DNA of 58,259 nt from positions 1-58,259 of the forward strand of contig JACQKZ010000012.1 of NCBI GenBank assembly GCA_016204275.1. The letters run 5' to 3'. Each line of letters begins with the position of its first letter. The first letter of the stretch is position 1. Shown here one piece after another: positions 1,625 to 54,464 of this stretch. Source of the stretch: Nanobdellati archaeon (GTDB lineage Archaea > Nanobdellota > Nanobdellia > UBA10117). The position numbers were made by a program, and so were the translations under genes. The notes below the pieces were generated by a model. The model was not told the DNA's origin. It ran no database searches and saw only the letters and a list, made by a program, of their open reading frames with translations.

Positions 1625-2350
1625 ATGGCTCCGGGCAAGTGGAAAGAAGTATTAGCCGATTTAGAGCCGTCAAATCCGGAGAAAGCCCTTAGACTGGAAA
1701 AGGAAGAAGGTATAGAAGAAACGCTTGCCAAGATGTTTAAAATATATGCTGGCAATGAATATGGTGGCCGCGTCACGGACGAAAAGCACCTCGAATACCG
1801 TATTAGCGATATCAAAAGCTCGGGACGTAATATAACTAAACAAGTTGTGGAAGAATTTTTTCTGCAGGTCGTTAGGTATGAAGATATATTTGTCGCAGGG
1901 CATGGGCATTATTATTCGCAGCGCACGGGCTTGTTTGCTTCTGCGCTTATTCAAGCCTCGTTTGAACAGGGCCACAATAATTTTGAACTGTTGTTGTTTG
2001 GAAACAGGCCGATATCTGACCTTGGCTATAAACTCAGGGGCGAGCCGGCCCGCAGGCTTTCAATTAGCATAACTACAGCTAATCAACCAAACAGCAGGGA
2101 ACCGAGGCCAAGTCTTTGGCTGGTTAATATGCAGTATGTTGACGCAACAATACTTGGGCTGAAGTGTGTGCCGTCGTTTTTAGTTGGCAATTCAAAAGAC
2201 TGTACATTTGCTTCGGACAGCCAGGATATACTTGACGCGATTTCTGAGATGGGCCAGCACCCATGCAAACTGGTTGATAACGATAAGCATACGACAGTTT
2301 ACCAAGGCCGGCCAGCAGATGCTGGCCTGCAGGTCATGGTGGAAGCATGA
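1625..2350 (+). CDS. tandem paralog 1 of 6, QGHNNFE-motif family, unknown function
   Basis: 241 aa. Shares with its neighbours an N-terminal LADLE..EK..EETLAKMFKIY block, SFEQGHNNFEL, LRGEPARRL and YVDATILG. Its TGA overlaps the next ATG (ATGA). Confidence 0.8.
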   Translation: MAPGKWKEVLADLEPSNPEKALRLEKEEGIEETLAKMFKIYAGNEYGGRVTDEKHLEYRISDIKSSGRNITKQVVEEFFLQVVRYEDIFVAGHGHYYSQRTGLFASALIQASFEQGHNNFELLLFGNRPISDLGYKLRGEPARRLSISITTANQPNSREPRPSLWLVNMQYVDATILGLKCVPSFLVGNSKDCTFASDSQDILDAISEMGQHPCKLVDNDKHTTVYQGRPADAGLQVMVEA

Positions 2351-3075
2351 ATAAAAATCTGAAAGATGTATTGGGAGGCCTTGAGCAGTCCCCGCCGGAG
2401 AAATCCGCAAGGATAGTAAGGGATGGACTGCTTGAAGAAACGCTTGCCGCGCTTTTTGAGATTTATGAAAAGAAACTGGCAATGAACTCAGGGTCGGGAA
2501 ATAGGTTTAACGTTGCGCCAAAGTTTTACAATTCGTGCCTGAAGTCAATGCCAAAAAGCAAGTACGATATAACAAAAAACGTTATAGCTGAATTTGCCCT
2601 TCGCGCCGCAAAATATGATGACAACTCTCATTTTGGCGCATACACTGGTTATTTTATCACTGCGCTAATGCAAACTTCGTTCCAGCAGGGCCACAATAAT
2701 TTTGAACTGCAGCTTGTAAGCAGCGAGCCGATTCATCACTTAGGCGCCAATTTGCGTGGCTGGCAAGACAGGAGGCTGGCGCTAAAAATTGTCAGTTGCG
2801 TTGAGTACAAGAAGCGTGATCTGATGAACCAGCCGTTGTTTTGGTTTACAAACATAGCATATATTGACGCAACCATACTTGGCATGAATATCGCACCGCA
2901 GGGCATAGGCGTAAATACAGTAAGCTCTTCATTTACGTCTGACAACAAATACATATTGGACGCAGTTGGCTATCACGGAAATCACACACGCCACTTTGTT
3001 CCGCGGACAGAAGTAAAAGTACCCGACGCCATAGCAAATCACACTCCGCAGATGCAGGCGTTGGCGGTGGCATGA
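2347..3075 (+). CDS. tandem paralog 2 of 6, QGHNNFE-motif family
   Basis: 242 aa. Motifs LGGLE..EK..LEETLAALFEIY, SFQQGHNNFEL, LRGWQDRRL, WFTNIAYIDATILG. ATGA overlaps at both ends. Confidence 0.8.
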   Translation: MNKNLKDVLGGLEQSPPEKSARIVRDGLLEETLAALFEIYEKKLAMNSGSGNRFNVAPKFYNSCLKSMPKSKYDITKNVIAEFALRAAKYDDNSHFGAYTGYFITALMQTSFQQGHNNFELQLVSSEPIHHLGANLRGWQDRRLALKIVSCVEYKKRDLMNQPLFWFTNIAYIDATILGMNIAPQGIGVNTVSSSFTSDNKYILDAVGYHGNHTRHFVPRTEVKVPDAIANHTPQMQALAVA

Positions 3076-3860
3076 TGAACCAAAAACATCTGAAGGAATT
3101 ATTCGGCGATTTGGAGCCGGCGGCCGTGGAGAGGCAGGCCAAGGTAGTTGTAGATGAAGATTTAGAAAAATCACTAAATAATTTGCTGGATGTGTATAAA
3201 ACTTCAGTGGCGTGCGAGATAAATCCATACCAGTTAGATGAGTTCGCATTTTATTCTATCTGCCTGGCGCAATTAAAAAGAACAAGCTGCGACATAACTG
3301 AAAAAGTAATATCAGAACTTGTCCTGCGGATTATGCGGCACAATAATATGTTTAACTTCGGGATAAACGCCGGCCAGTTCGTCACAGCATGCATACAGGA
3401 GTCATATTGGCAGGGGCATAATAATTTTGAACTCGCAATAACGGAGCCACTGCGCGGCCTTGGCACATACTTGAGAGGCGGGCCAGATAAAAAGCTAATC
3501 CTAACAGTAAATAATTTTGCGGCAGATTCAGATGTTCTTAACCGCGTAACAAATTTACAAGGCTGGTTCACAAATGCAGCGTATCTCGATGCAACAATCT
3601 GGGGCGCAGGCAACGTACCAGTGCGTACAGGATTTTTTTTTGGGTATAGAAAATATACAAATGGCACGCAGCCCGTCATAGGATATGAAGCAAAGGACTC
3701 TGTTTTTCGGGTTGATGACGCTGCCATATTTGAGTATTTGACTGCCGCAAAATATAGTTACGACAACGAAGTTTACCTGCTGGAAAAGCCAGAGCCAGAA
3801 GTTGTTGTGATAGAACATAATCACGAAAAAGCTGAACTCAATCTCGCAATTGAGGCATAA
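3072..3860 (+). CDS. tandem paralog 3 of 6, QGHNNFE-motif family
   Basis: 262 aa. Motifs LKELFGDLE, SYWQGHNNFEL, LRGGPDKKL, WFTNAAYLDATIWG. A C-terminal YLLEKPEPEVVV block and a tail ending AIEA. 1-nt TAATG overlap with the next gene. Confidence 0.8.
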   Translation: MMNQKHLKELFGDLEPAAVERQAKVVVDEDLEKSLNNLLDVYKTSVACEINPYQLDEFAFYSICLAQLKRTSCDITEKVISELVLRIMRHNNMFNFGINAGQFVTACIQESYWQGHNNFELAITEPLRGLGTYLRGGPDKKLILTVNNFAADSDVLNRVTNLQGWFTNAAYLDATIWGAGNVPVRTGFFFGYRKYTNGTQPVIGYEAKDSVFRVDDAAIFEYLTAAKYSYDNEVYLLEKPEPEVVVIEHNHEKAELNLAIEA

Positions 3861-4591
3861 TGCAGCCAAATAATAAATTAAAAGAACTGTTCGGCGATCT
3901 GGAAACGCCAAAAGAAAAAGCTATCAAGATAGAAAAAGACAGAGGACTGGAAGAAACGCTTGCTAAGCTGTCAGATATTTACAAATGCGCGCGTGTTTAT
4001 GATTTAGACTGGCCAGATAAAATTTACAAAACATATTTTGATTTGTTGGAAAAAAGAAATATAAAAATAACGCCAGAGTCAGTAGATTACTTTTTTTCGC
4101 GCATTAGTTACGAAGGCGGCGCAGCAAATGGAAGAAAAATGGGGCTGCTCTTAACTGCGATGGTACAGCTGTCTTTCCAGCAAGGACACAACAATTTTGA
4201 AATTGTAATCTGTAATAATCACCCATTGCATTTGTTTGGAATGTACCTGCGCGGCCAGCCCGATAAAAAACTTGCCATCCGAATCGATAATGTATATGAT
4301 GTAATGAACTACAAGGACGGCGAGCCGCACGCGTGGTTTAATAACATAGCATATCTGGATGTTACACTATCAAATGTGGATGCAAACGTACGTACCTTTG
4401 GCAGAAACGCAGGCAGCTCGGTTTTTAAGACAGATAATGAAAGCCTATTTTGTGAATTGCGCGACAGATTTGGGACGGCTAGCGAGCGGACGCCCGCAGA
4501 CAAATGTGAAGTTTACCTGCTGGCCGGCCACGGAGATGACTTAGCTGACGTGCCTGAGCCAACATCAGAAATGCAGTTATTAGAGGCATAA
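3860..4591 (+). CDS. tandem paralog 4 of 6, QGHNNFE-motif family
   Basis: 243 aa. Motifs LKELFGDLE..EK..LEETLAKLSDIY, SFQQGHNNFEI, LRGQPDKKL, WFNNIAYLDVTL. Tail QLLEA. TAATG overlap with the next gene. Confidence 0.8.
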   Translation: MQPNNKLKELFGDLETPKEKAIKIEKDRGLEETLAKLSDIYKCARVYDLDWPDKIYKTYFDLLEKRNIKITPESVDYFFSRISYEGGAANGRKMGLLLTAMVQLSFQQGHNNFEIVICNNHPLHLFGMYLRGQPDKKLAIRIDNVYDVMNYKDGEPHAWFNNIAYLDVTLSNVDANVRTFGRNAGSSVFKTDNESLFCELRDRFGTASERTPADKCEVYLLAGHGDDLADVPEPTSEMQLLEA

Positions 4592-5412
4592 TGAAACAAG
4601 ACAACCTGAAAAAACTGTTTGGCGACTTAGACGATCCAGTGCAAGAAAAAAGTATCAAGGTGACAAATGGTGGAACGCTTGATGAAACAGTAAAAGAGCT
4701 TTGCAGGATTTACGAGCATGTTGCTGACACGCGCGACGACAACCCGGACTTTACATATAAGCTTTGCAAGAGAAATTTGCCGCGGGATAAATATAAAATA
4801 AGCAACCAAGTAATCACTCAACTTTCTACCCAAATTTTTATGTATGATGCAGACATAGATTTTAAGGAAACCGCTGGCCCGTTCCTGACAGCAGCCATAC
4901 AAACCGCATTCCTTCAGGGCCACAACAATTTTGACATTTTATTTTCCGGCGCAACGCCGATGCATTATTTCGGCAGAGATTTGCATGGCTGGCCAGCTAA
5001 CAAGCTGAGAATGAATGTTATGGACTCTGGTTGCAGCGCGCAATCAGCAGGCTGGTTTTCCTATGCGCAGAACCTTGACGTAAAAATTACTGGCATGCAG
5101 CTAGTTCCAAGCCCGCATGCCCAGGTGCAAATTTTCGGGCAGTTTGGGCAAGTTCGGTATTTTACTAAACCAGACGACTTTGCGGTTAGCACAAAAAGAT
5201 GCAGGTTCGGCGTTGATAATAAAGACGTATTTTATTATTTAACAGAAAGATTTAAACTTCAGGAAAACTTGCGGTCAGTTGGCCAGCCATACGTTCCAAT
5301 GCCTGAAAGCGAAAGGTCGGAAGCATACTTGCTTGACAGGCCAGAGCCGGAAGTTATAGTACTGGATTTAGACAAAGCGATAAAACCGGAATTTGCACGT
5401 CTCGCTGTTTAA
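4591..5412 (+). CDS. tandem paralog 5 of 6, QGHNNFE-motif family
   Basis: 273 aa. Motifs LKKLFGDLD, AFLQGHNNFDI, LHGWPANKL. YLLDRPEPEVIV block near the C-terminus. Confidence 0.8.
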   Translation: MKQDNLKKLFGDLDDPVQEKSIKVTNGGTLDETVKELCRIYEHVADTRDDNPDFTYKLCKRNLPRDKYKISNQVITQLSTQIFMYDADIDFKETAGPFLTAAIQTAFLQGHNNFDILFSGATPMHYFGRDLHGWPANKLRMNVMDSGCSAQSAGWFSYAQNLDVKITGMQLVPSPHAQVQIFGQFGQVRYFTKPDDFAVSTKRCRFGVDNKDVFYYLTERFKLQENLRSVGQPYVPMPESERSEAYLLDRPEPEVIVLDLDKAIKPEFARLAV

Positions 5413-5430
5413 TTTCAGAATAATTTCAAA

Positions 5431-6132
5431 ATGGGAAACGATAGTATAAGAAAACTGCTTGGTGATTTGGAAGCCTTCCCGGACGAAAAACACCTGAAGG
5501 TCGAGGCAAATGAAAACCTGAATTCAAAAGTAGTTGACTTGTTAGTAAGTTACGAAGATAGTTTGTGCCGCTCGTGGGGTGATATGACACATAGCAATAT
5601 AAATGACTGTTACGACTTTTGTTTAAAATCGCTGTCCAATCAGTGCGCAGGCGTAGATAATGAAGTAATATCTACGTTTTTAGTACATACCAGCACGTAT
5701 TCGGAGCGTAAAAAGTATTCAGAAATTACTGGCCTATTTATAACTGCACTGCTGCAAACTGCGTTCGACAACAACCAGAATAATTTTGATATTATGCTTG
5801 CCAGCCAGCAGCCACTAAGTTTTTTAGGTCATACATTGCACGGCAGATGGAATAGAAGGCTCATACTAAAAGTCCGGGAAAGCAGCGAATGGAAAATGCA
5901 GTATTCGCCGTTGATTTGGTTTGAGTGTGCATCGCATTTAGAAGTCATGCTAGTTGGGGCAAACAATGTGCAGCTGCCCGCATTGAATTTAGATTGTAAA
6001 TATAAAACTGATGAGAAAAACATATTATTGTATGTAAATGATACTATTCGGCCAATTAAGCGGACCACGGTAGATATAATCAAACGCATGACTCAAGTAG
6101 ACATGATTAAAATCGAAAAACATCCAGTATAG
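5431..6132 (+). CDS. tandem paralog 6 of 6, divergent member
   Basis: 233 aa. Keeps IRKLLGDLE and the overall layout, but the core reads AFDNNQNNFDI and WFECASHLEV. It is separated by an 18-nt spacer rather than overlapping. Confidence 0.7.
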   Translation: MGNDSIRKLLGDLEAFPDEKHLKVEANENLNSKVVDLLVSYEDSLCRSWGDMTHSNINDCYDFCLKSLSNQCAGVDNEVISTFLVHTSTYSERKKYSEITGLFITALLQTAFDNNQNNFDIMLASQQPLSFLGHTLHGRWNRRLILKVRESSEWKMQYSPLIWFECASHLEVMLVGANNVQLPALNLDCKYKTDEKNILLYVNDTIRPIKRTTVDIIKRMTQVDMIKIEKHPV

Positions 6133-41571: not shown

Positions 41572-41754
41572 ATGACAAAAGGCACGCCATCAGAAGGCAA
41601 GAAGAGTGGAAAGGTATCGCACATCAGATGTAGGAGATGCGGCTACCCTGCGTACCACAGGCAGGCCAGGCGCTGCGCGAAGTGCGGCTTTCCGGATGCA
41701 AAGATAAGGAAGTACGCATGGCAGAGCAAGAGATTAGGCAAAAGACTTTTTTAG
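41572..41754 (+). CDS. rpl37e: 50S ribosomal protein L37e
   Basis: MTKGTPSEGKK..HIRCRRCG..RCAKCGF zinc ribbon. 60 aa. Confidence 0.9.
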   Translation: MTKGTPSEGKKSGKVSHIRCRRCGYPAYHRQARRCAKCGFPDAKIRKYAWQSKRLGKRLF

Positions 41755-41895
41755 ATGCTTGTTAACTATTGCGTTCGGCAAAGCCGAATGCAATTAAAGC
41801 GCCAGCCGATTCCTTCAAAAAGGAGGTCTCGCAAACCAAAGTTTGCGAAATCGCGGCTGTGGTAGAGCAAGAGATTAGGAAAGAGGCTGTTTTAA
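41719..41895 (+). repeat. direct, in-frame duplication of the last 12 codons of rpl37e (copies 41719-41754 and 41860-41895)
   Basis: 30 of 36 nt are identical. Five of the six differences fall at third codon positions, and four of those are synonymous sense-codon changes (the fifth is the stop, TAG/TAA). There is a 16-nt identical core, AGAGCAAGAGATTAGG. The offset is exactly 141 nt. Confidence 0.85.
41723..41863 (+). mobile_element. putative miniature (gene-less) integrative element inserted in the rpl37e 3' end
   Basis: One 141-nt repeat unit. The spacer carries a 12-bp-stem hairpin (41768-41794) and an 8-bp-stem hairpin, TCGCAAAC-CAAA-GTTTGCGA. The first hairpin recurs inside the tRNA-Ile intron. 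Confidence 0.35.
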
Positions 41896-41936: not shown

Positions 41937-42126
41937 GGGTCCGTAGCTCAGTCTGGCTAGAGCGCCTGCCTCTTAATATTAAGAGCAAGCAGGATGTCGC
42001 GAGTTCGAAACGGAGATGCCTTCCGTTGGGTTGTGTAACAACCCGACCCGGGGAGGGTCAGGATGAGCGTCCAACTGGGGAGGGGTGGAACCCCTCCGCG
42101 GTTCCGAGAAAGTCTCGTCGGGCCCG
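41937..42126 (+). tRNA. tRNA-Lys: tRNA-Lys (CUU) with two introns: 12 nt in the anticodon loop and about 103 nt in the T-loop
   Basis: Hand fold: acceptor GGGTCCG/CGGGCCC (one G:U pair), D arm GCTC/GAGC, anticodon arm CCTGC-CTCTTA[12 nt]A-GCAGG, T arm GCGAG-TTCGAAA[42011-42113]-CTCGT. The exons sum to 75 nt. The intron is GC-rich with three hairpins. Confidence 0.7.
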
Positions 42127-42127
42127 C

Positions 42128-42358
42128 GGGCTGGTAGTCCAACCTGGTACGGCTTTCAAAGCCGCAGGAAAGAACGTCTGCTTTGCAACAGCAGCCTTTC
42201 TTTTTATTGCGAAAAGAAAGGCTCCTGGGCATCCAAAGAAAAGCGCGAGGGCATCTCGTGTTACTCGATGCCCAATGTCAGAAGAGCAGAAGGCTAGGGG
42301 TTCAAACAAGACGAAACTAGTTTTGCTAGTTTCTTGTCAGAAAATCCCCTCCAGTCCA
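42128..42358 (+). tRNA. tRNA-Ala: tRNA-Ala (UGC) with two clear introns (97 nt anticodon loop, 38 nt T-loop) and a probable third insertion of about 22 nt in the D arm
   Basis: Acceptor GGGCTGG/CCAGTCC gives the G3:U70 alanine identity pair. Anticodon arm TCTGC-TTTGCA[42188-42284]A-GCAGA. T arm AGGGG-TTCAAAC[38 nt]-CCCCT. The D region is about 22 nt too long and includes the hairpin CGGCT-TTCAA-AGCCG. The gene starts 2 nt after tRNA-Lys(CUU). Confidence 0.65.
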
Positions 42359-42413
42359 CTTATGATAAAAACCAAGTTTTTGGCATTTCGCCAACAGAGT
42401 TCGGCGTTACAAA

Positions 42414-42424
42414 CTTTTTTAAAA
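42414..42424 (+). promoter_or_regulatory. putative TATA-like box for tRNA-Lys(UUU)
   Basis: CTTTTTTAAAA centred 27 nt upstream of tRNA position 1. Confidence 0.4.
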
Positions 42425-42445
42425 CATCAATGTAGCTTTATTTTT

Positions 42446-42629
42446 GGGCCCGTAACTCAGCTTGGTTAGAGTGGCAGCCTTTTACGGCAGCCTTTCTTTT
42501 TTGCGAAAGAAAGGCTCCCGGGCATCCAAAGAAAATGCGATGGCATCTACGATGCCATAAACTTTGGATAACTGAGAAGAGAGCTGCAAGTCGAGGGTTC
42601 GAATATAATAGAAAATCCCTCCGGGCCCG
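42446..42629 (+). tRNA. tRNA-Lys: tRNA-Lys (UUU) with two introns: 97 nt in the anticodon loop and 12 nt in the T-loop
   Basis: Acceptor GGGCCCG/CGGGCCC, D arm ACTC/GAGT, anticodon arm GCAGC-CTTTTA[42485-42581]A-GCTGC, T arm GAGGG-TTCGAAT[42605-42616]-CCCTC. The exons sum to 75 nt. Confidence 0.75.
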
Positions 42630-54129: not shown

Positions 54130-54464
54130 TGGGCCCGGGCTGAATTTCTTCGACTGTATTTATTGCATTCGGCAAAGCCGAATGCGATCCCGTCTTTCTT
54201 GGGATACAAACAAAATCCACGAGGATTTTGTTGTACGGCCGAACATTGTTCGGTCGTAAACGTTAGACCTTCTTTCCGGAAAGAAAGAAGGGCTGTCGAT
54301 TCGAACAGCCGACCTCTGCCTTACTGATTCTTCGCCCGTAAAGTTTTGTGCGATTGTAAATCGCACTATTTTTCTTTTGGGGTTTCACAGAGAACTTTTC
54401 TTTTTTTAAAAAGAAAAGGGCTGTGTTATCAGAGCAGCGCTCTACCGGGCTAAGCTACGGGCCC
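54130..54464 (-). tRNA. tRNA-Ile: tRNA-Ile (GAU) with two large introns: 105 nt in the anticodon loop and 156 nt in the T-loop
   Basis: Minus-strand fold: acceptor GGGCCCG/CGGGCCC, D arm GCTT/GAGC, anticodon arm CTGCT-CTGATA[54322-54426]A-GGCAG, T arm GGCTG-TTCGAAT[54143-54298]-CAGCC, discriminator A. The exons sum to 74 nt of 335. Confidence 0.7.
54162..54188. repeat. palindromic hairpin module shared with the rpl37e-adjacent element
   Basis: ATTGCATTCGGCAAAGCCGAATGCGAT versus ATTGCGTTCGGCAAAGCCGAATGCAAT at 41768-41794 (25 of 27 identical). It lies inside the tRNA-Ile T-loop intron. Confidence 0.8.

Follow-up and report, generated by a model that had tools for sequence, protein, structure and literature searches.

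Canonical archaeal tRNA introns, which are of the bulge-helix-bulge (BHB) type, occupy position 37/38, place a 4-bp helix between two 3-nt bulges, and leave exons that form a normal cloverleaf. The archaeal pre-tRNA-Trp intron encodes a box C/D sRNA. In Thermoproteales, intron families are common to unrelated tRNA genes (PMC4090602, citing Fujishima 2010). As summarised there, these transposed introns closely resemble one another across tRNA identities, occupy canonical and non-canonical positions, have the BHB as their sole junction requirement, and are presumed to move at the DNA level (PMC4090602). DPANN lineages show raised tRNA disruption alongside a specific EndA loop (PMC5829648).

The Caldiarchaeum tRNA-Thr model describes intron gain by a 1.9-kb mobile element with a putative recombinase that carries a copy of its target; direct repeats of the target gene flank the insert, mismatches are kept, and intron presence or absence varies at the population level (Sugahara et al. 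2012, PMC3293823). Bacterial PIT/BoxC elements carry a pyrimidine domain, a purine domain, and a mirrored, reverse-Hoogsteen purine domain on one strand, and are multi-copy conserved repeats tied to genome rearrangement (Holder et al. 2015, PMC4666352). MITEs and REP-type repeats are short, non-coding, hairpin-rich, multi-copy, and mutually nested.

The window described here is the whole 58,259-nt stretch of DNA that was analysed, and it contains tRNA-Ala(UGC) and tRNA-Lys(UUU) genes whose 37/38 introns resemble one another. With a probability of roughly 0.7, both are members of a single large family of structured, homologous BHB introns that has proliferated among tRNA genes in DPANN archaea of the Woesearchaeota/Nanoarchaeota type. 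The family is best read as a new variant of the Thermoproteales-type intron "transposition", with which it shares closely similar introns across tRNA identities and positions, a BHB as the sole junction requirement, and a presumed DNA-level movement. It differs from the Thermoproteales (Crenarchaeota) introns, as outlined in that source, in its DPANN hosts, in a ~60-nt 5' module conserved across genomes next to a host-specific 3' part, in a mirror-repeat covariation, and in its extra-intronic copies.

Host genes and splice junctions

The tRNA-Ala(UGC) gene (42128-42358, plus strand) contains three introns and has exons at 42128-42148, 42171-42187, 42285-42306, and 42345-42358, as defined by in-silico splicing and ARAGORN; its G3:U70 alanine identity pair is present. 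The tRNA-Lys(UUU) gene (42446-42629, plus strand) contains two introns and has exons at 42446-42484, 42582-42603, and 42616-42629; one of its introns is a 12-nt T-loop mini-intron (42604-42615). Both genes carry a 97-nt intron at position 37/38 (42188-42284 and 42485-42581), with the coordinates and sequences that an earlier sequence-only reading had given. Once introns are cut out in silico, ARAGORN restores cloverleaves for Ala(tgc), Lys(ttt), Lys(ctt), and Ile(gat), four of the four genes.

At both 37/38 junctions, constrained folds form the BHB, a 4-bp central helix between two 3-nt bulges, and keep the 5-bp anticodon stem of each pre-tRNA. The BHB-compatible folds have energies of -44.5 kcal/mol (Ala) and -47.2 kcal/mol (Lys) and lie within 4-6 kcal/mol of the unconstrained minimum. 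Unlike the shared 5' module, the 3' end of each intron fits its own host exon. In the Ala intron (42279-42284, plus strand), CAGA pairs with exon nucleotides 32-35 (UUUG) as the central helix, and the 3' bulge is made up of AG plus exon A38; in the Lys intron (42576-42581, plus strand), GAAG pairs with CUUU at exon nucleotides 32-35, with AG and A38 again forming the bulge. Further exon/intron pairings of this kind are CUGA/UCAG in Ile intron 1 of the window, read off the sequence, and CUCC/GGAG in the tRNA-Trp of locus L005.

Position, central helix, bulges, and cloverleaf exons all agree with canonical archaeal BHB introns. In contrast to those introns, the helix past the 5' bulge is the intron's own P1 hairpin, which yields a multi-helix junction, rather than a helix formed with the strand preceding the 3' half of the central helix, and the interior of the intron stays conserved from one host gene to another. 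The Ala and Lys introns are predicted, from this junction analysis, to be spliceable BHB introns subject to EndA cleavage and RtcB joining. Pfam searches recovered neither EndA nor RtcB among 10 ORFs of the window, and no RNA run holding the module was found.

Standard tools miss four of the six tRNA genes of the window. ARAGORN, in its default mode as well as with introns of up to 400 nt allowed, finds only two intronless tRNAs and calls none of the intron-bearing Ala, Lys, and Ile genes, and Rfam returns the same two intronless tRNAs at the gathering threshold and at E values up to 5. Without intron mode, ARAGORN reports zero tRNA genes in 9 of the 10 related loci scanned, though tRNAs with module introns are present there.

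Anatomy of the window introns

The Ala and Lys introns are similar beyond chance, with a local alignment score of 92 against 15.5 ± 2.8 for 300 dinucleotide shuffles (z = 27.8). The reported near-identity block proves to be an interior, 5' segment of about 58 nt, and the similarity does not lie at the splice-site nucleotides. No other place in the window contains the exact 15-mer GCAGCCTTTCTTTTT or 16-mer GGGCATCCAAAGAAAA. Their equal length, also pointed out earlier, is true but coincidental, as the Ala-Lys alignment requires at least 13 gap columns. Both focal introns fold strongly (z = -5.2 and -6.2). Group I and group II introns are ruled out by the 97-nt length and the lack of an Rfam match.

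The Ala intron (42188-42284, plus strand) is a full family member by covariance model R1 (85.7 bits, E = 1.7e-23). Its P1 hairpin and closing pairs (42190-42226), supported by folding and covariation, join AGCCTTTCTTTT (42193-42204) to AAAAGAAAGGCT (42212-42223), with A42190-T42226 and G42191-C42225 as outer pairs; the helix lies immediately 3' of the 5' splice bulge. P1 is followed by the P2 5' strand GGGCATCC (42227-42234), whose partner in the minimum-energy fold is GATGCCC (42268-42274), and by the purine tract AAAGAAAAG (42235-42243), which the mirror test identifies as the mirror of the P1 purine strand AAAAGAAAGG. The variable GC-rich region (42244-42274) holds P3 and the P2 3' strand.

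The Lys intron (42485-42581, plus strand) is likewise a full member (68.5 bits, E = 2.7e-18). Its P1 hairpin and closing pairs (42486-42519) consist of G42486-C42519, G42487-C42518, and AGCCTTTCTTT/AAAGAAAGGCT. The P2 5' strand GGGCATCC and then the purine tract AAAGAAAA occupy 42520-42535, with ATCCAAAG (42524-42531) pairing to CTTTGGAT (42562-42569). The P3 hairpin ATGGCATC-TAC-GATGCCAT (42540-42558) is seen in the fold, and P3 of this Lys type recurs in the D-loop introns of L012 (Glu) and L023 (Lys CUU).

The sequence-only reading had matched GGGCATC..GATGCCC of the Ala intron (42250-42256 and 42268-42274) with TGGCATC..GATGCCA of the Lys intron as a paired G/T and C/A change that preserves a stem. 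This change is present, but it is ambiguous alone because the Ala GATGCCC pairs equally with an upstream GGGCATC, the pairing used by the minimum-energy fold. Family-wide covariation rescues the point.

Both tRNA-Ile(GAU) introns, for which a relationship had been suggested, are divergent members by R1. Ile intron 1 (37/38, 54322-54426, minus strand) contains P1 CTTTTCTTTTT/AAAAAGAAAAG and the purine tract AAAAGAAAAA; R1 matches it in full length at 54364-54424 on the minus strand (E = 8.2e-5), and its local alignment scores reach z = 6.6 to the Ala intron and 4.3 to the Lys intron. Ile intron 2, in the T-arm, maps to 54142-54297 on the minus strand, one position away from the 54143-54298 first assigned, and has extra hairpins nested between P1 and its ATCCCAAGAAAGAC tract. 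R1 matches only its first hairpin, P1 (54265-54294, E = 3e-4), the intron aligns with its Ala and Lys counterparts at z = 4.7-5.5, and the nested hairpin is common to locus L018. Across the whole window, R1 finds nothing significant beyond the Ala, Lys, and Ile introns, and the Lys(CUU) T-loop, Ala T-loop, and Ala D-loop introns show no significant family similarity in alignments against shuffles. The tRNA-Ala(CGC) of the window is intronless; in other family-bearing lineages (L003 and L015) this tRNA carries the module.

Distribution of the family

The proposed spread between non-homologous tRNA genes is supported, and it is much wider than first supposed. More than 30 introns contain a ~60-nt 5' module that starts 1-3 nt past the 5' splice site. 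It begins with P1 (GCAGCCTTTCTTT/AAAGAAAGGCT), a 12-16-bp pyrimidine/purine hairpin directly flanking the 5' bulge, and continues through the linker CCYGGGCATCC, with the P2 5' strand GGGCATCC, to the purine tract AAAGAAAG. The variable 3' part consists of a GC-rich P3, the P2 3' strand, and a host-complementary stretch of 4 nt, which pairs with the exon just upstream of the 5' splice site as the central BHB helix.

Module hosts comprise about 20 tRNA species, namely Ala (UGC, CGC, GGC), Lys (UUU, CUU), Ile, Val, Trp, Ser (GGA, GCU), Pro, Cys, Gln, Gly, Glu, Asp, Asn, Thr, Met, and His genes. Module introns occupy the D-loop in L004, L006, L009, L012, L016, L022, and L023, position 37/38 in the window, L003, L005, L011, and L014, and the T-loop in L020-1386, L025-6250, and Ile intron 2 of the window. 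They derive from at least six named Woesearchaeota/Nanoarchaeota MAGs and from many groundwater, soil, and freshwater metagenome contigs; LysRS relatives and MAG names place the hosts in Nanoarchaeota/Woesearchaeota (DPANN) and not in the order Thermoproteales.

Scanning GTDB species genomes with an exact pattern turned up 7 archaeal copies, distributed over 5 named MAGs, and a metagenome scan added 17 loci; both were seeded with module-derived patterns, and the most divergent relatives and the true taxonomic range lie outside this sampling. L010, the sole bacterial match of the genome scan, has no P1 and is a chance match or a mis-binned fragment. Exact 31-mers of the module occur in at least nine studies (groundwater, soil, aquatic, and freshwater). 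Within 190 kb, the covariance model detects 34 copies in sense orientation (E < 1e-7). A single tRNA gene holds as many as 3, and 7 sit on a 5.3-kb locus taken from a 10-kb contig. Module identity is 80-100% across alignments A2-A4.

Outside introns, one copy lies in a tRNA 3' trailer (L021) and one is antisense (L018). The L018 copy sits at the end of a 414-aa ORF, next to an imperfect 33-nt duplication of that gene's end. Every copy borne by a tRNA gene is sense-oriented. Scanning IMG/VR twice with patterns gave no module match that would indicate a virus-borne origin, no mobility enzyme was identified for the family, and its copies contain neither terminal inverted repeats nor a consistent target site. 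The family resembles MITEs and REP-type repeats in being short, non-coding, hairpin-rich, multi-copy, and mutually nested; unlike MITEs, it lacks terminal inverted repeats and a short fixed target-site duplication, and only its 5' end is conserved, with variable flanks.

The nearest relative contig (78% LysRS identity) keeps the TFB-S8e-LSm-L37e synteny but lacks both the tRNA cluster and the module, and thus offers no orthologous comparison. A precise empty site was not found; at the L37e insertion, the search for one yielded very high repeat depth and not a single joint. Small hairpin repeats abound in the genome.

Intron turnover

tRNA bodies are conserved between lineages while their introns vary. 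Relatives from the same samples carry a 13-nt mini-intron with an identical 3' end at the Lys(UUU) site, and one relative carries a full module intron where the tRNA-Ala of the window has a 22-nt D-loop intron. Population-level presence and absence of introns is also a feature of the Caldiarchaeum model, and its flanking direct repeats can be compared with L018 and with the L37e end of the window. In contrast to the 1.9-kb Caldiarchaeum element, the inserts here are 100-170 nt and non-coding, and long duplications are found only at protein-gene ends and not at tRNA introns.

Selection on RNA structure

Covariation in P1, P2, and P3 upholds the earlier proposal that intron RNA structure is under selection. 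P1 is 96.8% paired, five of its pairs show double changes, and none of 500 shuffles reaches the observed values; an extra P1 closing pair is A-U in 18 of 31 rows and G-C in 10 of 31. P2 pairs with its own partner at -13.7 kcal/mol, compared with -12.06 ± 0.41 kcal/mol for swapped partners (0 of 20,000 permutations). Copies are phylogenetically related, and these permutation statistics, like that for the mirror repeat below, overstate independence. P2 covaries and uses G-U pairs, which indicates that the folding molecule is the sense RNA. The 3' parts of these introns have diverged, yet their 5' modules hardly vary, and recent origin alone is therefore insufficient to account for the identity.

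Mirror repeat and candidate triple helix

The purine tract mirrors the purine strand of P1, with a mirror score of 203 versus 165 ± 5.8 and 0 of 20,000 permutations reaching it, and the corresponding direct-repeat score gives no signal. Of 24 variant classes, 19 are described better by the mirror and 2 by the direct repeat. On inspection, A-run lengths break the mirror rule in three of the 24 classes (L024a, L007, and L020-1204), two of which are the classes where the direct repeat scores higher. The top pair of P1 varies together with tract position 8: C-G occurs with G in 14 of 31 rows and U-A with A in 10 of 31. Asymmetric variants (L012+5038, L025+6072, L020-958/-1386/-5206, and L011) fit the mirror and not a direct copy, which rules out Watson-Crick pairing of the tract with the P1 pyrimidine strand.

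Evolutionary evidence of the kind that this covariation provides has earlier revealed real RNA tertiary structure. The module has the sequence order of a class II intrastrand triplex, with a pyrimidine domain, a purine domain, and a mirror purine domain, and its mirror covariation is the signature such a triplex would leave. It is hypothesized, tentatively and with the balance tilting against it, that the intron core holds a naturally selected intrastrand triple helix in which the tract would lie antiparallel to the P1 purine strand and form A*A-U and G*G-C triples. Counting against this structure, RNA strands are reportedly excluded from purine-motif triplexes (PMC4666352, PMC7583470). In some copies, P2 also takes in the tract's first 4 nt, so the triplex and P2 may be mutually exclusive.

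The domain order on one strand and the association with multi-copy conserved repeats recall PIT/BoxC elements. BoxC is G/C-rich, intergenic, and bacterial, whereas the motif here is A/U-rich and lies inside a transcribed intron amid the covarying helices P2 and P3. If present in pre-tRNA or in the intron after excision, the structure would constitute the first long natural purine-motif RNA triplex; should it form in the displaced sense DNA strand of these heavily transcribed genes, it would drive copying of the element to further tRNA sites. Read on the antisense strand, this sequence would give a classical U*A-U / C+*G-C triplex, which could matter for the L018 copy. The mirror motif is one that in-vitro work says RNA should not form, and it is informative either way.

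Alternative explanations

The module could instead be a functional small RNA carried in introns, comparable to box C/D guides, that, once excised and circularised, acts in trans as a guide, protein sponge, or regulator and gains dosage from its copies. This account draws on sequence conservation above pairing needs, on a 60-nt module that is 100% identical across organisms and tRNA hosts, on 31 invariant columns of 66, on the strong folds, and on the uniformly sense orientation of tRNA-borne copies. It is nevertheless unlikely. A box C/D sRNA is rejected: the focal introns, as read from sequence, contain no C box (RUGAUGA; UGAUGA is absent) paired with a D box (CUGA), and Rfam has no match to them up to E 5, including snoRNA and sRNA families. 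The pre-tRNA-Trp intron likewise holds a conserved RNA element within a tRNA intron, but the module lacks its C/D boxes and is present in many tRNAs. In addition, the analysis turned up no single-stranded stretch that is conserved and has an identifiable target, the tract covaries with P1 intramolecularly and not with an outside target, and copies also occur antisense and in a tRNA trailer.

A purely local event, gene conversion or segmental duplication between the Ala and Lys genes with no family behind it, is suggested by their location 300 bp apart in one cluster and by GC(A/T)GC plus a T-run in both anticodon arms, a possible microhomology. The Ala module, however, shows 100% identity across 60 nt with a tRNA-Ala(CGC) intron of another organism from a different groundwater site and only 82% identity with its Lys neighbour, and the Lys module is closest to a tRNA-Gly intron (85%). 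The window introns are not mutual closest relatives, so direct Ala-Lys transfer is not shown by the data. More than 30 copies in about 20 tRNA species at three positions already contradict this explanation, which is very improbable.

Equally hard to sustain is the view that these loci are tRNA pseudogenes broken by a small repeat, with working genes elsewhere in the genome. Standard tRNA finders do not call the genes, and small hairpin repeats are abundant in the genome, as this view would have it. Against it, the exons are intact and form perfect cloverleaves, and the 3' ends of the inserts are complementary to their own host exons, with 4-bp helices and two 3-nt bulges, a pattern expected solely under selection for splicing. 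Most of the loci analysed contain no intronless tRNA by ARAGORN, and the tRNA bodies are conserved across lineages while the introns vary.

Convergence or chance, by which 37/38 introns beside U-rich anticodon loops need similar BHB nucleotides and UUU in both loops dictates GAAGAG ends (the Ala feature itself reads CAGA plus AG), can be dismissed, since the common block is interior, spans 58 nt, scores 27.8 standard deviations above shuffles, and recurs in D-loop and T-loop introns with unrelated flanking exons.

Proposed mechanism

For a family of homologous BHB introns, the module may serve as a portable scaffold. From established archaeal tRNA splicing, P1 would stack beside the 5' bulge and P2 would close the intron, bringing the tailored 3' end to the exon. 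EndA would then cut at both bulges, and RtcB would join the exons and probably circularise the intron. The element may be copied as DNA into tRNA genes, possibly into pre-existing short introns, and would persist only where the BHB permits it to be spliced out. Later interior deletions could leave the 12-22-nt mini-introns as remnants, or these could be precursors. P1 and tract sequence held beyond pairing needs may reflect a triple-helix-type interaction, in RNA or single-stranded DNA, that assists folding or propagation.

Significance

To our knowledge, no cis-acting element or mechanism of archaeal tRNA intron gain has become known since the "transposition" of Thermoproteales introns was inferred. 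The family offers a handle on intron gain, consisting of a 60-nt module with defined helices, a host-tailored 3' end, and many natural variants. Presence/absence polymorphism within single groundwater communities, together with copies outside tRNA genes, makes a cycle of BHB intron gain and decay testable. The tRNA complements of DPANN archaea are badly under-called, and these complements are often used to judge genome completeness and "missing" functions; a covariance model of the module would recover missed DPANN tRNA genes.

Intron-bearing tRNA genes

The window DNA is archaeal. The genes around the introns encode TFB, ribosomal protein S8e, an LSm protein, ribosomal protein L37e, and a class II lysyl-tRNA synthetase (LysRS). 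The sources of the best LysRS relatives (62–78% identity) name Nanoarchaeia, Woesearchaeota, Pacearchaeota, and Aenigmatarchaeota, all DPANN archaea, and groundwater metagenomes contain window DNA. Elsewhere in the window (1625-6132) are six tandem head-to-tail ORFs of 233-273 aa; five are linked as paralogues by repeat families spaced ~720-770 bp, and the first has no Pfam match.

Three intron-bearing tRNA genes lie within 41937-42629; a fourth, on the minus strand, occupies 54130-54464. Neither ARAGORN nor Rfam detects any of the four, because each holds two or three introns, and splicing by hand yields perfect cloverleaves. In silico, tRNA-Lys(CUU) loses a 12-nt intron at 37/38 and a 103-nt T-loop intron; tRNA-Ala(UGC) loses a 22-nt D-loop, a 97-nt 37/38, and a 38-nt T-loop intron; tRNA-Lys(UUU) loses a 97-nt 37/38 and a 12-nt T-loop intron; and tRNA-Ile(GAU) (minus strand) loses a 105-nt 37/38 and a 156-nt T-arm intron. 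Standard tRNA detection recovers two of the six window tRNA genes, and ARAGORN without its intron mode fails to report a single tRNA in nine of ten related loci (L009, L012, L014, L016, L018, L020, and L023-L025), all of which clearly carry several. These DPANN genomes have strongly under-annotated tRNA complements.

The tRNA-Ala(UGC) D-stem (42137-42140 with 42172-42175) reads GTCC/GAAC and contains a C12-A23 mismatch. Since this mismatch is also present in the Ala(CGC) genes of other organisms (L003, L015), it is taken as a lineage feature and not an error.

The Ala and Lys introns

The 97-nt introns of tRNA-Ala(UGC) (42188-42284) and tRNA-Lys(UUU) (42485-42581) were described in the sequence-only reading as near-identical at their 5' ends, an observation confirmed by alignment over the first ~58 nt. 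Aligned locally, they score 92 (dinucleotide shuffles give 15.5±2.8), and a 15-mer and a 16-mer common to both introns have no other occurrence in the window. The equal length noted in that reading is real but accidental, because the alignment requires several indels. Both introns fold far better than shuffles (z -5.2 and -6.2). Their junctions are canonical bulge-helix-bulge (BHB) motifs, each with a 4-bp helix (UUUG/CAGA in Ala, CUUU/GAAG in Lys) and two 3-nt bulges; this central helix lies beyond the anticodon stem and pairs exon nucleotides 32-35 with intron nucleotides -6 to -3. The shared block is interior, so neither outcome named in that reading as a refutation is seen: the likeness is not limited to the BHB-forming part, nor does it fall short of significance. 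A paired G/T and C/A change in a downstream hairpin, put forward earlier as a sign of stem preservation, is present but proves little alone, because two copies of GGGCATC are available as partners for the Ala GATGCCC.

A dispersed intron family

Family introns begin with a conserved ~60-nt module composed of a hairpin (P1), the 5' strand of a second helix (P2), and a purine tract. Comparison of the region with public metagenome contigs shows that unrelated groundwater and soil studies contain the 59-nt stretch 42189-42247, at a word depth of ~65 against 0 in the flanking exons. Scanning one genome for each GTDB species with an exact pattern returns seven archaeal copies in five named MAGs, each at the extreme 5' end of an intron and each in a different tRNA. 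A metagenome contig scan anchored on the first hairpin only adds 17 further loci, and nearly all of its intact-module copies carry downstream GGCTCC-Y-GGGCATCC-AAAGAAAG or a close variant, which was absent from the search pattern. A covariance model trained on 17 copies finds 34 sense-strand copies (E<1e-7) in 190 kb of fetched DNA, divergent ones included, with seven on one 5.3-kb locus from a 10-kb contig. In the window, the model matches the Ala intron at E 1e-23 and the Lys intron at E 1e-18. In agreement with the likeness proposed for the tRNA-Ile introns, it also matches the whole of Ile intron 1 (E 8e-5) and, in Ile intron 2, the P1 hairpin (E 3e-4); it has no other matches across the whole window.

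Host tRNAs, inferred by reading flanking exons, are Ala(UGC, CGC, GGC), Lys(UUU, CUU), Ile, Val, Trp, Ser(GGA, GCU), Pro, Cys, Gln, Gly, Glu, Asp, Asn, Thr, Met, and His. With modules in the D-loop, at 37/38, and in the T-loop of so many identities, the proposed spread among non-homologous tRNA genes is supported and widened. Single genes can hold several module introns (L024 1-300, L025 5890-6310, and L020 2140-2330): tRNA-His has three (D-loop, anticodon loop, T-loop) and tRNA-Pro two (D-loop, 37/38). Exact module 31-mers occur in runs of at least nine studies and were not found in IMG/VR viral contigs. Over 60 nt, the window Ala module shares 100% identity with the intron of a tRNA-Ala(CGC) gene in another aquifer, and the closest relative of the Lys module is a tRNA-Gly intron. 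Because neither module has the other as its closest relative, these introns are cousins, not donor and recipient.

Module anatomy and selection

The module starts 1-3 nt past the 5' splice site. In P1, AGCCTTTCTTT(Y) pairs with (R)AAAGAAAGGCT; the helix is 96.8% paired across 31 distinct copies, with two-sided changes at five pairs; none of 500 shuffles reaches these values. Two extra pairs close P1, one of them A-U in 18 of 31 rows and G-C in 10, so that the helix starts directly after the 5' bulge and replaces the outer BHB helix. The linker CC-Y-GGGCATCC forms the P2 5' strand, and its 3' partner lies near the intron 3' end in variable register (GATGCCC, CTTTGGAT, CTCTGGATGC, GGTTCCC, and others). 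Within a copy, this strand pairs more stably with its own downstream region than with regions taken from other copies (-13.7 versus -12.06±0.41 kcal/mol; 0 of 20,000 permutations), and several G-U pairs in P2 show that it is the sense RNA that folds. The two P2 strands enclose the purine tract and P3, a variable GC-rich hairpin whose arms vary among copies yet remain complementary. The final six intron nucleotides are host-exon-specific and form the BHB.

P1 covariation and the fit of P2 to its own partner support the earlier proposal of selection on intron RNA structure. The 5' module is almost invariant whereas the 3' parts of the same introns have diverged, so recent origin alone fails to explain module identity; the module sequence itself is under selection. 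It probably serves as a scaffold, and the introns are presumably spliced and circularised.

Mirror symmetry and a possible triplex

Asymmetric A/G patterns in the P1 purine strand reappear reversed in the downstream purine tract, neither the same nor complementary. Examples are GAAAGAAAAAGG with AAAAAGAAAGG, GAGAAAGAAAAG with AAAAGAAAGAGG, AAAAGAAAGAAA with AAAGAAAGAAAA, and, in window Ile intron 2, GAAAGAAGG with AAGAAAGA. Across 24 variant classes, alignment as a mirror scores 203, compared with 165±5.8 when tracts are permuted among copies (0 of 20,000). A direct repeat gives no signal across these classes (score 159) and fits better in two of 24, versus 19 for the mirror. The top P1 pair is C-G with G at tract position 8 in 14 of 31 rows, and U-A with A in 10.

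Mirror symmetry is not produced by any replication or Watson-Crick mechanism and is the defining feature of triplex-forming sequences. The covariation thus suggests a triple helix. The class II intrastrand purine motif has the strand order pyrimidine, purine, mirrored purine (PMC4666352), and the module has the same order. Its topology fits a triplex: the purine strand of P1 goes from apex to base, a 13-nt linker comes next, and the tract could then go from base to apex. Isolated purine-purine-pyrimidine triples occur in RNA, for example in the tRNA D-stem. Purine-motif triplexes are reported to exclude RNA in vitro (PMC4666352, PMC7583470). The interaction may therefore form in the sense DNA when single-stranded, in RNA contrary to expectation, or as an antisense-strand pyrimidine-motif triplex. 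P2 and the triplex may alternate, since P2 includes the first four tract nucleotides in some copies.

Signs of turnover and copies outside introns

The introns are polymorphic between lineages. In samples with the window's organism, tRNA-Lys(UUU) of related contigs has a 13-nt intron with the same site and 3' end (C-CAAAAG-GAAGAG or C-CGAAAG-GAAGAG). A related contig carries a full module intron after CCTGGTA, where the window tRNA-Ala has only the 22-nt D-loop intron (42149-42170; ACGGCTTTCAAAGCCGCAGGAA); both end in GCAGGAA. Because it ends like the full-length module introns that relatives carry at this site, the 22-nt intron may be a deletion remnant. This intron and the 12-nt introns of Lys(CUU) at 37/38 (41976-41987) and of the Lys(UUU) T-loop (42604-42615) are near the minimum size able to hold a BHB. 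tRNA-Ala(CGC) is intronless in the window and module-bearing in other lineages (L003, L015), and other hairpins are nested within some modules (L018, L023, L025). At 42473-42497, the module's first 10 nt (GGCAGCCTTT) equal tRNA-Lys(UUU) positions 26-35, the gene reading exon GGCAGCCTTTTA and then directly C-GGCAGCCTTTCTTT. Speculatively, the family founder could have come from a duplication in the tRNA-Lys(UUU) anticodon arm.

Two related loci have the module outside tRNA introns. In L021 (6330-6460, minus strand), it starts five nt past the 3' end of an intronless tRNA-Ala(GGC), and after it come another, partial copy (GGGGATCCAAAAGAAA), a GC hairpin, and TTTTT; here it is a 3' trailer or terminator region and not an intron. 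L018 (6204-6407) has an antisense copy with nested hairpins at the 3' end of a 414-aa ORF, flanked by two 33-nt copies of the gene end in imperfect direct repeat. Both repeats encode DDKQKT-L(S/T)EF-stop, and their last 15 nt differ mostly at synonymous positions.

The window L37e gene (41572-41754) also has a duplicated end (region 41719-41894). A hairpin-rich element (41756-41859, 105 nt) follows it, and then a second copy of its last 12 codons (41860-41895; W*SKRLGKRLF*), which matches the true gene end except for synonymous changes and one CAG>TAG. This arrangement is like that of an att-type insertion bringing along a copy of its target's end. The element is a high-copy repeat, because its word depth is 15-20x that of its flanks in three of four metagenomes compared, and it has a 25-nt hairpin (GCRTTCGGCAAAGCCGAATGC) in common with tRNA-Ile intron 2.

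A second, unrelated conserved module, CCGGGG..GTCAGGATGAGCGTCCAAC-TGGGGAGGGG-TGGA-ACCCCTCC-GCGGTTCCGAGA, lies in the tRNA-Lys(CUU) T-loop intron (42010-42112, core 42039-42106) and has no Rfam match. Several contigs of other studies match it with 5-9 differences (depth ~40), and a variant (GTCAGGGTGAGCGTCCACC...GCGGGTCCGAGA) lies in a further intron of tRNA-Cys in L008, ~180 nt downstream of that locus's copy of the first module. Its GGAUGAG and CCGAGA could form a K-turn-like pair.

Interpretation

The signs of turnover and the copies outside introns fit an element that would be copied to new sites at the DNA level and decay afterwards. Such DNA-level mobility is probable for the family, and these observations agree with the models proposed for intron movement in Thermoproteales (PMC4090602) and for intron gain in Caldiarchaeum (PMC3293823). 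The interpretation offered in the sequence-only reading is supported and extended from two introns to a family, for which no description was found in Rfam or the searchable literature. The phenomenon belongs to a known kind, BHB intron families common to unrelated tRNA genes, and three of its features are new: the host phylum, a defined conserved scaffold, and covariation of the triplex type.
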